Source: Escherichia coli (lineage in GTDB: Bacteria; Pseudomonadota; Gammaproteobacteria; Enterobacterales; Enterobacteriaceae). Taken from it: DNA of 64,000 nucleotides. The DNA lies in assembly GCF_003018255.1 (NCBI RefSeq), contig NZ_CP027440.1; one strand, written 5' to 3'. The notes under the pieces were generated by a model, which saw nothing but the letters and a program-made list of their open reading frames with translations, was not told where the DNA came from and searched no databases. Positions 18,057 to 32,988 of the stretch are shown one piece after another. The translations under genes were made by a program, and so were the position numbers. Numbering within the stretch: position 1 is the stretch's first letter; every line of letters begins with the position of its first letter.

Positions 18057-18992
18057 TTATTTCACTTCAACCACATTCAGCCGTAACTCATCCAACTGAT
18101 TTTCATCTTCTTCAGGCTGCCAACCCGCCGGTTGTAGAGGGATCTCTTCGCGATCAAACGCCAGATCACCCCCGTTAACCACTTCAGAACCGTGGGTAAT
18201 ACCTTTGAAATCGAACAGGTTGGTATCGCACAGATGCGACGGCACCACATTCTGCATCGCGCTGAACATCGTCTCGATACGCCCTGGATAACGTTTATCC
18301 CAGTCACGCAACATGTCAGCAATCACCTGACGTTGCAGGTTAGGCTGTGAACCGCACAGGTTGCACGGAATAATCGGGAACGCTTTTGCATCGGCAAAGC
18401 GCTGAATATCTTTCTCGCGGCAGTAGGCCAGCGGGCGAATCACGATATGTTTGCCATCATCGCTCATCAGTTTCGGAGGCATACCTTTCATCTTGCCGCC
18501 GTAGAACATATTTAAGAACAACGTTTGCAGGATATCGTCACGATGGTGACCCAGCGCGATCTTCGTCGCTCCCAGTTCCGTTGCGGTACGATAAAGGATA
18601 CCGCGACGAAGACGAGAACACAGTGAGCAAGTGGTTTTGCCCTCCGGAATCTTCTCTTTCACGATACCGTAAGTGTTCTCTTCCACAATCTTGTACTCAA
18701 CGCCCAGCTTTTCAAGATACTCGGGCAGAACGTGTTCCGGAAAGCCCGGTTGCTTTTGATCGAGGTTAACAGCCACCAGCGAAAAATTGATTGGCGCGCT
18801 TTGCTGCAAATTGCGCAGAATTTCCAGCATGGTATAGCTATCTTTACCCCCGGAGAGGCAAACCATGATGCGATCGCCTTCTTCAATCATATTGAAGTCA
18901 GCAATGGCTTCGCCCACGTTACGACGCAGGCGTTTTTGTAATTTGTTCAGGTTGTATATTTCTTTCTTCGTATTCTTTTGATTTTCTTGCAT
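18057..18992 (-). CDS. ttcA: tRNA 2-thiocytidine(32) synthetase TtcA
   Basis: 311 aa with SGGKDS PP-loop motif and CxxC pairs; its 5' end overlaps the prophage attL. Confidence 0.9.
18943..18957. other. attL core of the Rac-like prophage (TTGTTCAGGTTGTAT), inside the ttcA 5' coding region
   Basis: The same 15-mer recurs at 32764-32778 with diverged but related flanks. Confidence 0.55.
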
Positions 18993-19043
18993 TATTTCAG
19001 TTCTCTGGTACTAAATGGGGCAAATTGGGGGCAAACTTTGCAA

Positions 19044-20279
19044 CTACGATAACCGCGCATTCAACATGGCTACCTGTTCGTCGTTCATGTCATCAATCCA
19101 CATACCGTAAATTTCATACACCATCTGCGCAGTTTCATGCCCCATCTGGCTGGCTATAAACGCCGGGTTCGCTCCTGCCGTCAACAGCCAGCAGGCAAAA
19201 GTATGCCGCGTATGGTACGGATTACGGCGGCGAATACCAGCACGTTTTACTGCTGCATTCCATCTCGCACCCAAACTGCTTACCGAGTAATAAGGTTTCT
19301 GTTTTCCGTTACACACTCTGGGCATGAAAACAAAATGCAGTTTTTGCTTTTCGGTTCTGCCGTACTCCCGATGATAAAAAGTGATTTCGCTTTTGCGATG
19401 ATGCCCGGTCAGTTTGTATTGCTCCTTCAGTGCTTCAAGAGCAGGCTGCAGTAGTGTTACCGTCCGGATCCCCGCATTTGTTTTTGGGGGACCGAACATA
19501 TCAAGTATCGTCAGGTTTCTTCTGACATTCACAACTCCCTTCTCGAAATCCACATCCTCCCACGCCAGAGCAGCCAGTTCCCCGTGACGAAGCCCGGAGT
19601 ATACGGCAAATTTCCACAAGTTCTGGCTCTGTCCTTTTTCACTTTCCATTAATGCATTGAATTCTGTTTTAGATAACGGGTCAGGCTTTATTCTGTTTCT
19701 CTGTAATTTTTTTACTCCTTCAAATGGTTTGGTTGATATAAATCCCGACTGATACGCAAAACGTAACAACGAACAGAGCAGGGCGATATAATTATCAACT
19801 GTGCGCACGGTTCTTCCTTTTTTGTTGGATCTTGGATTATCTAGGTAAAGCGTTTCTCCATGCAGCAGTTCATTCCGGTAGTTTAAGATATCGCTATAAC
19901 GAATATGCGATATCGGGGTACTCTCACAAATTATTATCCTGAGTGTTTTTAATTGTGATTTCGTTTTCTTCATTGTGTTTGTTGTTAACTCTGTTTCTTT
20001 AATTTTTGTCCAGATATCACAAAGCTCCCCGAACGTTTTTATGACCCTCGTTGTCACCATTTTTGCCCCAGTGCTGGACTGGGGAAAACGTCTTAAATAC
20101 TCAAACTCACCGGAATTGATTTCATGAACTATCAACGCTCTTAAATTCCCGGCTTTTTTAATGTTACTGTTAGTAACCTCCCAGCCTTTCAATGTTTCCC
20201 GACATCGTTTTCCTCGAAACATGAACCAGATGCGAATGTATTTACCTCGAATCTCGACACCTGTTGGTAATTTAGACAT
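19044..20279 (-). CDS. intR: Rac prophage tyrosine integrase IntR
   Basis: 411 aa with a C-terminal tyrosine-recombinase catalytic region (HxxR ... Y); immediately inside attL. Confidence 0.9.
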   Translation of the reverse strand: MSKLPTGVEIRGKYIRIWFMFRGKRCRETLKGWEVTNSNIKKAGNLRALIVHEINSGEFEYLRRFPQSSTGAKMVTTRVIKTFGELCDIWTKIKETELTTNTMKKTKSQLKTLRIIICESTPISHIRYSDILNYRNELLHGETLYLDNPRSNKKGRTVRTVDNYIALLCSLLRFAYQSGFISTKPFEGVKKLQRNRIKPDPLSKTEFNALMESEKGQSQNLWKFAVYSGLRHGELAALAWEDVDFEKGVVNVRRNLTILDMFGPPKTNAGIRTVTLLQPALEALKEQYKLTGHHRKSEITFYHREYGRTEKQKLHFVFMPRVCNGKQKPYYSVSSLGARWNAAVKRAGIRRRNPYHTRHTFACWLLTAGANPAFIASQMGHETAQMVYEIYGMWIDDMNDEQVAMLNARLS

Positions 20280-20280
20280 A

Positions 20281-20496
20281 TCATGAGTCTTTGATAAACT
20301 GATTTATCTTTGGATAGTTGTACCAGATAATTCCTCGCTTACTGTCTGGCTTCCCTAAAGGAGATACTCGTTTGAAGTGGAAGCCTTCCACCCAACAGTT
20401 CTGGCGGTATGCTTCAATTTGTCTGGCCCCCAGACCAGTGCGAAGCATCAGGCCGTATTCAACCATCCACTCTTCATTAAAGATTACTTGTGCCAT
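20281..20496 (-). CDS. xisR: excisionase-like protein XisR (YdaQ)
   Basis: Start at [11 protein letters not shown] gives 71 aa; directly upstream of intR. Confidence 0.7.
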
Positions 20497-20595
20497 CGCA
20501 TTACCTCTGGCAGGCGCCAATGTTAGACTTAAATTGACGCCCGATGTTGATTATTAATAATCAGCTATGAAGTTTTAATTTGAATACAATGCAAT

Positions 20596-28952: not shown

Positions 28953-29810
28953 CTAATTGGGTGATAACAGATCCTGTGTATGGGAGTTTCCCTTTGTGCG
29001 TGCGTTGATGCTGGTAACGGTAAACGTCATGATGAACACGACCGCGAATAAGACGACAATCGTCGGAGCTGGTGCGCTGTCGATAAAAAAGGACAACCAG
29101 ACACCAGTCATTGACACTATTACCGATATGCCAGTCGCCAGTAGGAGCGCAATATGAAAGCGTTGTGTCAGGAGTACCGCAATGGCGCCAGGCGCTATGA
29201 GCAGAGAAATGGAGAGAATGATACCTACCGCTTTCAGCGTCGCCACAATGGTCAGAGAGACCATGCACAGCAGCCCATAATGCAGCCATCTCGTATGCAA
29301 ACCGCTTACCTGCGCCTGTTGATAATCAAAGCTGAACAGCAAAAAATCCCGCCATTTTACGCTAATAACAAGTGTAACCAGCCCGGCAATAATCATCGTC
29401 TGGATTATATCGCCGATGGTTATCCCGAGCATGTCGCCGAAAAGAATATGGTCAAGATGTACGTCTGGTTTGACTGCAATATACAAGATCAGACCTGCGG
29501 CAAACATGCCAGAAAAAACAATCCCCATCACTGTATCTTGCTTGATTCGGCTGTTGTCTTTCAGGTATCCCGTCGCCACCGCGCAGAATACTCCGGCGAC
29601 GAATGCCCCTGTAGCTAAAGGTAACCCCAGAATCCAGGCAAGCACGATGCCAGGAAAAACTGCATGACTCATCGCGTCACCCATCAGTGCCCAACCTTTC
29701 AGGACCAGAAAGACCGACAGCAGCGCACAGGGTATGGAAACTACCAGTGAAATCAGCAGTGCGTGACTCATAAAGGTGAACTGCAGTGGCTCCAGTAATA
29801 ATGCCATCAT
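28953..29810 (-). CDS. sitD: Mn/Fe ABC transporter permease SitD
   Basis: 285 aa integral membrane permease; last gene of the four-gene operon; overlaps sitC by 4 bp. Confidence 0.9.
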   Translation of the reverse strand: MMALLLEPLQFTFMSHALLISLVVSIPCALLSVFLVLKGWALMGDAMSHAVFPGIVLAWILGLPLATGAFVAGVFCAVATGYLKDNSRIKQDTVMGIVFSGMFAAGLILYIAVKPDVHLDHILFGDMLGITIGDIIQTMIIAGLVTLVISVKWRDFLLFSFDYQQAQVSGLHTRWLHYGLLCMVSLTIVATLKAVGIILSISLLIAPGAIAVLLTQRFHIALLLATGISVIVSMTGVWLSFFIDSAPAPTIVVLFAVVFIMTFTVTSINARTKGNSHTQDLLSPN

Positions 29811-30664
29811 GAGCGATCCTCCAGCGCCTTATGCGCACGCCGACGATTTGCCAAAAGCCCATGGGTGGGCGCAAAGACAAATGCTAAAAGAAACAGCAGT
29901 GTCTGCGCCACCACGATGATTCCACCTGTCGCGCCGTCCAGAAAGTAACTGACCCACGAGCCGAGGAAACTGGTTACACTGCCAATAGTTACAGCAATCA
30001 TGAGCAGGCGGGGAAAACGATCGGTTAACAACCATGCTGTTGCACCGGGAGTCACCACCAGACAGATCACCAGAAAGGCACCAACCGTTTGCAGCGCCGC
30101 AACGGTCGAAACCGACAGCAGGGTGAAGAAGAGGAGTTTTAATCTGCCCGGATGCAATCCAATAGCACGGGCGTGATTCTCGTCGAAAAAGGTCACCATA
30201 AGATCTTTCCATTTGAAAAAAAGCACGATGATCGAGAGAATGCCAATGATAGTGAGTTGCAGGATATCCGCCGGATCGATTGCCAGAATATTGCCCAGGA
30301 CGATGGTCTGAATGTTCACAGATGTCGGGTTCAATGACACCATAAACAGCCCCAGGCCAAAAAAGGATGAGAAGATCAGGCCGATGATGGCATCTTCTTT
30401 TAAGCGGGTGCGTTGGTTAAGAAACAGCATGCTGCCCGCAGCCAGTCCGCCGGAAAAGAAGGCTCCCAGAGAAAACGGAAGCCCCAGCATATATGCTCCC
30501 GCAACACCCGGGACAATAGAGTGCGACAACGCATCGCCAATCAGCGACCAGCCTTTTAGCATCAGATAGCATGACAGGAAAGCGCAGAGACCGCCGACCA
30601 TCGCCGAGACCCACATCGCATTGAGCATATATTCATAGCTGAAGGGTTCCAGTAGCACGTTCAT
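29807..30664 (-). CDS. sitC: Mn/Fe ABC transporter permease SitC
   Basis: 285 aa permease paralogous to SitD; 4-bp overlaps on both sides. Confidence 0.9.
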
Positions 30665-31488
30665 CTTTCTTCCCTCTGCACCGCTGACGGTCGATGAGCC
30701 ACAAAAGGGCGTTCATCGTCAGTAATAATGCTTTCTTCCGAGCCGTTAAGTGTGACATGGCGCAGTACGCCGCTAAAAGCCAGCTCCAGGTTCTCGGCTG
30801 TAAAAGTGGTGTCTGTCGGCCCGCTTGCCAGGACGGTGCCTTTGACCATGACCGTATAATCGCAAAATGTCGTGACGGATCCGAGATTGTGTGTTGAGAC
30901 AAGCATCGTTTTGCCTTCCGCGCGTAACTCCCTCAACAGGCTGATGATTTTGGCTTCGGTTTTCACATCAACGCCAGTAAAAGGTTCATCCAGCAGGATC
31001 ACATCACCCTGCTGTGCAATCGCTCTCGCCAGAAAGACGCGTTTCTTTTGTCCACCGGAAAGCTCGCCGATTTGTCGATGGCGAAAATTCACCATATCGA
31101 CACGTTCCAGCGCATCGGTGACAATTTGACGATCCCTCTTTTTGGCGATACGCAACATACCCATATGCCCATAGCGGCCCATCATCACCACATCTTCCAC
31201 CAGTACAGGAAATGACCAGTCAACCTCTTCTGACTGAGGGACGTAGGCAACCAGGTTTTTCTGTAACGCCTGTCGCGTGGGAATACCCAGAACAGATATC
31301 TTTCCGCTGGTCAGACGCACAAATCCCATAATCGCTTTAAACAACGTCGATTTTCCGGAACCGTTTACCCCAACCAGAGCGGCAATAGATCCACTTGGTA
31401 CTGTGAAGGATGCATCGCGCAGTGCTGTGTGCCCGTTACGCCAGGTGACAGTAACATCATTAACGACAATGCCTGCAGATTGCATCAT
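30661..31488 (-). CDS. sitB: Mn/Fe ABC transporter ATP-binding protein SitB
   Basis: 275 aa with Walker [13 protein letters not shown] signature LSGGQKKR and Walker B ILLDEP. Confidence 0.9.
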
Positions 31489-32402
31489 TATTTCTCCCTT
31501 TTCCCGGCTTTAATTCCCTGTACCAGCGTACTGGTAGTAACCTTAAGAAGGTCGATATACGTCGGTACCGGGCCGTTTTCTGTGCTCAGGGAATCGACAT
31601 AGAGCACACCGCCGTAGTGTGCGCCGGTTTCACGCGCAACCTGACGCGCTGGTTTATCGGAAATCGTACTCTCGCTAAAGACTGCCGGGATATGATTTTT
31701 CTTAACTATATCAACAACCTTACGTACCTGTTGCGGTGTTCCTTGTTGATCGGCATTAATCGGCCACAGATAAAGCTCTTTTAGCCCCAAATCGCGTGCG
31801 AGATAAGAAAAAGCCCCTTCACTGGTGACCATCCACCGCTGATTCTCAGGGAGTTCCGTAATCTGCTTACGCAGGGGGGCAAGGGTTTGGGTAATCTTGG
31901 CTTTATAAGTATCGGCATTACGTTGGTAGGTTTGTGCATTAGCGGGATCGTATTTTATCAACGCATCACGAATATTATCGACGTAAATCAGAGCATTATC
32001 TGGCGACATCCATGCATGGGGGTTAGGTTTGCCCTCATAGGGGCCTTCGGTGATCCCTACTGGCGTCACACCCGAAGAGACAATTACTTCTGGAACCCCA
32101 TTGAGATGCTGGTAAAAGCGTTGGAACCACAATTCCAGATTCATACCATTGGCGAGGATCAGTTGTGCCCCCTGCGCACGTTTAATATCGCCAGGGGTAG
32201 GCTGATACTCATGAATTTCTGCACCGGGCTTGGTTATGGATGAGACTTCTGCAGCATCTCCAGCCACGTTTTTGGCCATATCCGCGATGATGGTAAATGT
32301 TGTAATGACCTTGAATTTTTCAGTTGCACTTGCCTGAAATGCGATCGAGCAGGTGAGGGCGAGGCACCCCAAGAGCATGGTTACTTTTTTTATTGAGTGC
32401 AT
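31488..32402 (-). CDS. sitA: periplasmic Mn/Fe-binding protein SitA (cluster A-I substrate-binding protein)
   Basis: 304 aa with signal peptide; first gene of the operon; 1-bp overlap with sitB. Confidence 0.9.
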
Positions 32403-32434
32403 AATTTAGTACCTATAGTGAGCAAAATTAGAAC

Positions 32435-32456
32435 AAACATAGCAACGGCTATGTTT
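32435..32456. promoter_or_regulatory. MntR box (perfect palindrome AAACATAGC-N4-GCTATGTTT) in the sitA promoter
   Basis: Perfect 9-bp inverted repeat 33 bp upstream of the sitA start; matches the MntR operator consensus as I recall it. Confidence 0.65.
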
Positions 32457-32477
32457 TATAGCACAACCTATACAAAA

Positions 32478-32496
32478 TGAAAATGATTATCATTAA
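32478..32496. promoter_or_regulatory. Fur box in the sitA promoter
   Basis: TGAAAATGATTATCATTAAC matches the GATAATGATAATCATTATC Fur consensus at most positions. Confidence 0.6.
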
Positions 32497-32610
32497 CAAC
32501 TTTGTGGCCCAAAACAGGGATTAGGTTGTTTCCTGCTGGCGACATGGTATTGAGGAAAAAAGCAGGGCAGCTATTAGGCTTTGAAATGACTTTATGAGGA
32601 AAATTTTTGA

Positions 32611-32655
32611 TGGCAAAAATGGGGCAAAACGCTGTAGAAGGGGCAAAAAAGGGGC
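32611..32655. repeat. three direct GGGGCAAAA(A) repeats in the prophage arm next to attR
   Basis: GGGGCAAAAC ... GGGGCAAAAAA GGGGCAAAAAAA; two similar copies lie at 19019-19038 next to attL. Confidence 0.6.
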
Positions 32656-32763
32656 AAAAAAAGAGTGGATTATCGTAGCTTATTGTTGTCGCTGATAATG
32701 TTTAACATATTGAAAAATAAATAAAATACTTATGAGTCAGATAGTTGTGATTTTTGCCCTTAC

Positions 32764-32813
32764 TTGTTCAGGTTGTATTGTTCTTTCTTACTAATTTCTT
32801 GATTTTGCGACAT
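32764..32813 (-). pseudogene. ttcC: ttcC: duplicated ttcA 5' fragment at attR (core TTGTTCAGGTTGTAT at 32764-32778)
   Basis: Reverse strand encodes MSQNQEISKKEQYNLNK-stop, paralogous to the TtcA N-terminus [17 protein letters not shown]. Confidence 0.6.
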
Positions 32814-32988
32814 TTAAAAGCGACTCAATTCGTTATATGGCATCAGAAGAGTATGCGTCATGCCGGAACGCCCAGCATAAGAAATCTGATATAAAAACTG
32901 TGGCGTGTATGGTACGGATTAGAGGGGAAAATGTCAGCACATTTGCGAAATGAATCAAAAAGCCCGCAGCAATGTGCGGGCGTTAGTG

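Follow-up and report, generated by a model that had tools for sequence, protein, structure and literature searches.

The direct repeats in the attR-side arm of this Rac-like prophage, together with their counterparts in the attL-side arm, are in all likelihood the arm-type sites at which the integrase IntR contacts the Rac attachment site. The attR-side (P) arm carries four same-strand copies of (T/G)GGGCAAAA and the attL-side (P') arm carries two; when the window, by which we mean the whole 64-kb stretch of DNA analysed, was searched for exact GGGGCAAA matches, these were found on the + strand at P-arm copies 2, 3 and 4 and at both P' copies (Table 1). The motif is unlike the core, it recurs in both arms within an attP of ~290 bp, and its tandem copies are helically phased. 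It also tracks the integrase lineage rather than attB or the flanks, and both the motif and its layout of 2+2 copies in P and 2 in P' persist down to ~30% integrase identity and at other attB sites. The arm-type reading had been put forward in a preliminary description of this DNA, and it appears well supported by the separate arm-binding domain of IntR, by the presence of the motif in both arms, by its conservation in the integrase family and by a joint change of both arms in Pseudomonas phage MD8.

Table 1. Repeats, attachment-site elements and genes of the Rac-like prophage and its surroundings, in window coordinates
Feature	Position	Strand	Remarks
P-arm copy 1, degenerate TGGCAAAAA	32611..32619	+	Outermost candidate arm-type site; invariant in five Rac-type attR arms
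P-arm copy 2, GGGGCAAAA	32621..32629	+	11 nt from copy 1
P-arm copy 3, GGGGCAAAAA	32640..32649	+	19 nt from copy 2
P-arm copy 4, GGGGCAAAAAAA	32651..32662	+	11 nt from copy 3; C at 109 nt from core
P'-arm copy 1, GGGGCAAA	19017..19024	+	Kept in all ttcA-integrated relatives
P'-arm copy 2, GGGGCAAA	19028..19035	+	11 nt from copy 1; 9 nt before intR stop codon
attR identity block, TTGTTCAGGTTGTAT	32764..32778		Presumed crossover region; inside 26-nt site annotated attB in Rac-SA53 record
attL identity block, TTGTTCAGGTTGTAT	18943..18957		Within ttcA 5' coding region
IHF-like site, TTTCAATATGTTA	32703..32715	-	One mismatch to WATCAANNNNTTR; between P-arm repeats and core; consensus match only
Second IHF-like match, AATCAAAAGAATA	18971..18983	-	P' arm, in phage-supplied ttcA 5' codons; conservation confounded by coding constraint
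Inverted partial copy, GGGCAAAAA	32751..32759	-	4 nt left of attR core (TTAC, 32760-32763, between)
ttcA	18057-18992	-	
intR	19044..20279	-	Tyrosine integrase, 411 aa; PF12167 (N-terminal arm-binding domain, residues 5-69) + PF00589
xisR (ydaQ)	20281..20520	-	Excisionase gene; phrog_539 excisionase, E=7e-27 (PHROGs)
sitABCD	28953-32402	-	Iron/manganese ABC transporter; adjoins attR side

The prophage is a 13.8-kb Rac-like remnant inserted in ttcA, whose further cargo, from left to right after xisR, comprises lom, stfR, a tail-fibre assembly gene and an MFS gene, and beyond attR uspF and ompN follow in the K-12 order. The combination of sitABCD and an MFS transporter as attR-side cargo was also seen in E. 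coli AR436 and in a record named Salmonella phage SPF_0923. A mosaic joint lies at 32420-32603: left of ~32600, upstream of sitA, a segment of phage 21 and many lambda-like phages (their b region) share the sequence at 91-94% identity, and the Rac-specific att arm begins at ~32603. The identity block shared by attL and attR sits in a longer imperfect match of 43 nt (84%), and the excised attP of ~290 bp would be composed of 32603-32763 (attR-side arm), the core and 18958-19043 (attL-side arm). Between attR and uspF, 51 nt (32894-32944) are 76% identical, on the same strand, to the 3' part of intR (19197-19247), and this stretch looks like what remains, next to the att site, of an older integrase gene. 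At the corresponding place in APEC O1, P'-arm-like sequence is followed by an annotated truncated integrase pseudogene, and together the two observations suggest past tandem integrations.

The spacing of the repeats is regular. Measured from C to C, the P-arm copies are 11, 19 and 11 nt apart and so form two pairs, and the P' copies form a single pair with an 11-nt spacing, which places the six copies at about -160, -149, -130, -119, +68 and +79 relative to the core centre. The three GGGGCAAA copies of the P arm start to the left of the attR identity block, at distances of 143, 124 and 113 nt from it, in agreement with the preliminary description, which had counted three copies 110-150 bp inside attR; however, it had missed the degenerate copy 1, and its right-hand limit of 32655 clips the last copy, which reaches ~32662. 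The two copies that it had placed 60-80 bp inside attL beside intR were found to start 60 and 71 nt beyond the right-hand end of the attL identity block, where the pair occupies the 51-nt gap from the start of ttcA (18992) to the stop of intR (19044). P-arm copy 2 and P' copy 1 have a 12-mer in common, AAATGGGGCAAA (shared 8-mers from 32617 and 19013 onwards). The two arms had been called mirrored, a term that does not fit, since all copies are on one strand and hence are direct repeats in the excised attP.

At least three non-overlapping copies of any 8-mer within 50 nt occur only here in the window, and such a cluster arose in 5 of 200 first-order Markov simulations. The probability of meeting GGGGCAAA twice in the 86-nt P' arm is ~7e-7, and when the k-mers of both arms were compared in an unbiased way, no 8-mer besides the GGGGCAAA motif was common to them. 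Clustering of the repeats by chance is excluded. A sixth match in the window lies inside intR at 20062-20069 on the - strand, within a perfect GGGGCAAAAA at 20060-20069 (-), where it forms the codons Gly-Ala-Lys of residues 71-73, just past the arm-binding domain; it is without conservation in the PHB10 integrase and is probably a chance occurrence, the expectation being 2.8 matches per window.

Other elements of the arms were compared in the same way. The IHF-like site between the P-arm repeats and the core is kept in Rac-type arms; an identical and syntenic element is present in phi367 and a perfect consensus occurs at that place in PHB10, all as pattern matches. In KT1 no match to the IHF consensus was found, and EH1910 has a single match, with one mismatch. 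The inverted partial copy GGGCAAAAA beside the attR core was considered as a seventh arm site and rejected as unproven: it is kept in close Rac-type arms, but it is lost in one of the loci compared (L003), and neither PHB10, where it is oriented and placed differently, nor phi367 has it in a syntenic position. It could be a core-proximal site or a chance match.

In regards to the protein that would read the repeats, residues 5-69 at the N terminus of IntR match an arm-binding domain of their own (Pfam Arm-DNA-bind_2, PF12167; E=3e-26), after which come SAM-like and catalytic domains (PF00589, E=6e-23). The predicted structure of the N-domain shows a fold of three strands plus a helix, as in the arm-binding domains of the lambda, Tn916 and HPI integrases, with scores that are modest yet usual for so small a domain; the N-domain was compared by fold search, the sequence search of the PDB with IntR having given matches to the catalytic domain only. 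In NCBIfam we found just sub-threshold Xer-type matches for IntR and none for XisR. The integrase of phage vB_EcoS-666R9 matches the IntR of the window at 100% identity, and the Rac-SA53 one does so at 99.5%. Its pairing of PF12167 with PF00589 is the one by which the IntBPP-1 subgroup is recognised in the part of Smyshlyaev et al. 2021 (PMC8138268) considered here, where the subgroup consists of PF12167 (formerly DUF3596) proteins and where its examples from BPP-1, an Stx2a phage and Gifsy-2 are termed putative integrases.

The repeats were also looked for in other Rac-like elements, whose lack of them had been named beforehand as a ground for giving up the reading, and they were present in all. 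The Rac P arm occurs in 962 of 5,426 complete E. coli genomes, in which its annotation never goes beyond 'hypothetical protein'. Independent Rac-type elements differ in their left-side cargo (the ydfK/ynaM side in K-12, sitABCD in this window, tail genes in Rac-SA53), and their homology starts a few nt left of copy 1. When five P arms were aligned, one of them only 83% identical, the repeat units proved almost invariant: the 83%-identical arm reads GGGACAAAA at copy 2, Rac-SA53 reads GGGGCAACAAAA at copy 4, and no other change was seen in them. The 9-nt spacer between the pairs and the outer flank are variable.

Beyond Rac, the contiguous attP of PHB10, whose integrase is 69% identical to IntR, has AGGGGCAAA-type copies at -160, -148, -129 and -118 in the P arm and AGGGGCATAA at +68 and AGGGGCAAAAA at +79 in the P' arm, so that its repeat geometry is that of Rac although the remaining arm sequence no longer aligns. 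Pairs of TGGG(G/A)CA stand in both arms of five further elements with differing attB sites. In phi367 (933W-like, wrbA; integrase 44% identical) the P arm has TTGGGGC four times as 2+2 and the P' arm has TTGGGGCAC and CTGGGGCAC; the ompW-site junction of EH1910 (40%) reads GGGGCA, GGGGCA and GGGACA at 11-nt spacing in P and GGGGCA and GGGACA in P'; and Pseudomonas phage KT1 (28.5%) has TTAGGGCAAA twice in P and TTAGGGTA and TTAGGGCATAAA in P'. Bordetella phage BPP-1, with an N-domain 33% identical, carries two copies of TTGGGACAAA in P and TTGGGAC and TTGGGGCAAA in P', and Gifsy-2 has a GGGGCA pair in each arm. In these five, 173-207 nt separate the inner P copy from the first P' copy.

A survey of 77 relatives, one genome per species, in which the 3' end of int was scanned from the end of the protein alignment, gave a similar picture. 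A strict pair, defined as GG[GA]CA-N5-7-GG[GA]CA on the antisense strand, was found at the int 3' end in 53 of the 77 relatives and not once in 460,820 nt of background formed by the rest of those loci; with the motif relaxed to GGG[GA]C the pair was found in 62/77 relatives (57/64 among those with at least 40% identity) versus four occurrences in the background. The relatives surveyed occupy many different chromosomal contexts. Most of them read TGGGGCATGGATGGGGCAAAC, without A-tracts, and the family-invariant part is GGGGCA. From IMG/VR, P'-arm sequence was available for only 5 of 80 loci, nearly all of which end exactly at the int stop codon. In relatives 40-45% identical (L119-L159) and in Gifsy-2 (L176 60-90) the integrase has a C-terminal extension whose codons contain the P' pair, ATGCCCCA encoding Met-Pro-His of this tail, and thus the same bases encode the protein and its presumed binding site.

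Pseudomonas phage MD8 (L171), whose integrase is 29% identical, departs from the family motif in both arms at once: TGTACCA(A) pairs stand in each, with matching spacing and positions. Such a joint change is the pattern expected of sites read by one protein. The MD8 N-domain has a one-residue deletion in its third strand (RRC-E versus KRCRE), possibly a determinant of specificity. For MD8 and Ralstonia, where the motif is switched, the N-domain differences in strands 2 and 3 are suggestive, with too few sequences for a claim.

The same comparisons bear on whether the repeats might be structural DNA, either A-tracts phased so as to curve the arm or to nucleate H-NS, or functionless products of 11-nt slippage. 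Phased A-tracts curve DNA, and the Rac units do carry A4-A7 tracts phased at 11 nt. Slippage does occur, as the inner P cluster of E. coli 162.2 (L173 270-330) has three GGGGCAAAAAA units where the others have two, the additional 11-nt unit being a slippage expansion; since copy number thus varies between strains, some copies may be dispensable. H-NS, furthermore, affects rac excision according to earlier work cited in PMC4632033. Against these points, GGGGCA is invariant across the family and the A-tracts are not, and slippage can neither put the same motif into the other arm ~190 nt away nor keep it down to ~30% integrase identity across many attB sites, which leaves a purely structural origin highly improbable.

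Still less probable is a role of the repeats as operators, either for the promoter region of sitABCD or for the 5' end of ttcA supplied by the phage. Their positions would allow it, the P-arm copies lying 209-260 nt upstream of the sitA start (32402) and the P' pair 25-43 nt upstream of the ttcA start codon. However, in the Rac of K-12 and in other elements without sitABCD the repeats stand just as far from the core, and relatives integrated outside ttcA retain the P' pair, often within the int coding sequence. Scans for promoters and terminators at attL and attR returned nothing above shuffled expectation, the three weak promoter matches at attR being within the shuffled range (mean 1.7, sd 1.5). 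IntR bound at the repeats could conceivably have a secondary effect on ttcA expression.

The excisionase deserves closer attention as a candidate binder, and its function has been demonstrated in K-12 (PMC4632033). The repeats could be sites of XisR, the recombination directionality factor, polymerising head to tail on tandem units as lambda Xis does on X1-X1.5-X2, and tandem direct repeats about one helical turn apart in the P arm do resemble Xis filaments. XisR homologues also accompany the integrase in PHB10 and phi367, their excisionases being 65% and 35% identical to XisR, and because excisionases co-vary with integrases, conservation alone does not separate the two proteins in the enterobacterial subgroup. 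Liu et al. reported that XisR shifts a 294-bp AttR probe, which includes the repeats, and does not shift a 291-bp AttM probe (PMC4632033). We mapped the published EMSA primers on K-12 (L002): AttR spans 598-891 and AttM 477-767, and the repeats at 615-665 are inside both. The unshifted AttM probe therefore holds all four P-arm copies, from which it follows that, in this single study with one His-tagged protein, XisR alone does not bind the repeats.

Two further observations speak against XisR. The motif is also paired in the P' arm beside int in 62 of the 77 relatives, where sites of a directionality factor are not expected, and BPP-1 retains it with an excisionase that shows no similarity to XisR by BLASTP. 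Excisionase sites would be confined to one arm and bound by their own excisionase; the repeats stand in both arms and, in the one published experiment, were not bound by XisR. In the enterobacterial subgroup only BPP-1, with its unrelated excisionase, and the published EMSA tell integrase from excisionase, and we regard XisR sites as very unlikely, about as much so as a structural origin. The sequence unique to the shifted AttR probe is the core and the B' side (L002 768-891, which is 32764-32887 of the window). This would imply that XisR binding needs the core or the bacterial side of attR and not the phage arm, an unusual requirement for an excisionase and one on which PMC4632033 does not comment.

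With IntR as the preferred binder, the attachment site can be set beside known systems. In lambda, the arm-type sites P1, P2 and P'1-P'3 are bound by the N-terminal domain of Int. Lambda attP and that of Rac are alike in having a heterobivalent tyrosine integrase with an N-domain of three strands plus a helix, a short motif distinct from the core in both arms, tandem copies spaced by ~11 nt beside int in the P' arm, distal P-arm copies at about -120 to -160, and, in Rac as a putative site matched by consensus, an IHF-type site between arm and core. They differ in the motif itself (GGGGCAAA in Rac, C/AAGTCACTAT in lambda) and in the pattern of copies, 2+2 / 2 in Rac as against 1+1 / 3 in lambda, the Rac sites being candidates assigned by sequence. 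The lambda P2 site is moreover inverted relative to P1, whereas the Rac copies are all direct.

Tn916 and Tn1549 are conjugative transposons with a loose choice of target and different arm repeats, unlike Rac with its fixed site in ttcA. KplE1 (CPS-53), with IntS and TorI, is a cryptic prophage of K-12 in whose attL and attR integrase arm sites and excisionase sites have been mapped. It differs from Rac in integrase family, motif and attB, and its sites are experimentally mapped while those of Rac are assigned by sequence. The nearest comparison is the IntBPP-1 subgroup, which shares the PF12167 domain with IntR and in which the attP of BPP-1, of a 933W-like phage and of Gifsy-2 carry TGGG(G/A)CA pairs. 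This subgroup is other than that of lambda Int in the part of PMC8138268 considered here, which classifies proteins and gives no arm sites, and the DNA motif adds to that classification.

We propose that the N-domain of IntR (residues ~5-69) would bind units of (T/G)GGGCA(A/T)A, of which the P arm offers two phased pairs (from about -160 to -119 relative to the centre of the core) and the P' arm a single pair (about +68 and +79), while the protomers so bound would hold the core in ttcA through their C-terminal core-binding and catalytic domains. An IHF-type bend at 32703-32715 could then turn the P arm back on itself, letting the integrase bound there reach across to the core and form an intasome, and XisR would redirect the assembly towards excision. 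IntR as the binder of the repeats, the role of IHF and the division of copies between integration and excision are all points that we infer from the sequence and from the likeness to known systems. Searches of the open-access literature returned no IntR binding data on the repeats and no mapped arm sites for this motif, for Rac/IntR, for 933W/wrbA or for PF12167 integrases, although an earlier description in a subscription journal is possible. Likewise, the statement that arm sites had not been assigned for Rac IntR agrees with what was found in open-access papers and bioRxiv.

The paradigm is known from lambda, and what appears to be new are candidate arm sites for the IntBPP-1 subgroup, which were expected in principle. 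Laboratory strains of K-12 carry Rac, whose excision alters TtcA and affects biofilm behaviour (PMC4632033). The arm sites would define a minimal attP of ~290 bp, give targets for locking or releasing the prophage, and account for the exact coincidence of copy 1 with the start of the conserved module. Attachment sites of 933W-type Shiga-toxin phages and of Gifsy-2 bear this motif too, and a simple rule, namely an 11-nt TGGGGCA pair at the 3' end of the integrase gene with a matching pair or two ~190 nt away, could help to delimit prophages of this family.

A shared motif also raises the question of cross-talk between integrases of the family. It is conceivable, though we hold it somewhat less likely than its opposite, that a TGGGGCA arm code is common to the whole IntBPP-1 subgroup (Rac, 933W-type Stx phages, Gifsy-2 and BPP-1), and that the integrases of co-resident prophages can recognise one another's arms and differ only in the cores that they recognise. 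If this were true, IntR could occupy the arms of Stx or Gifsy prophages and vice versa, perhaps altering the efficiency of excision or integration, and an exchange of no more than the core-binding half of the integrase would let the family retarget to a new attB.
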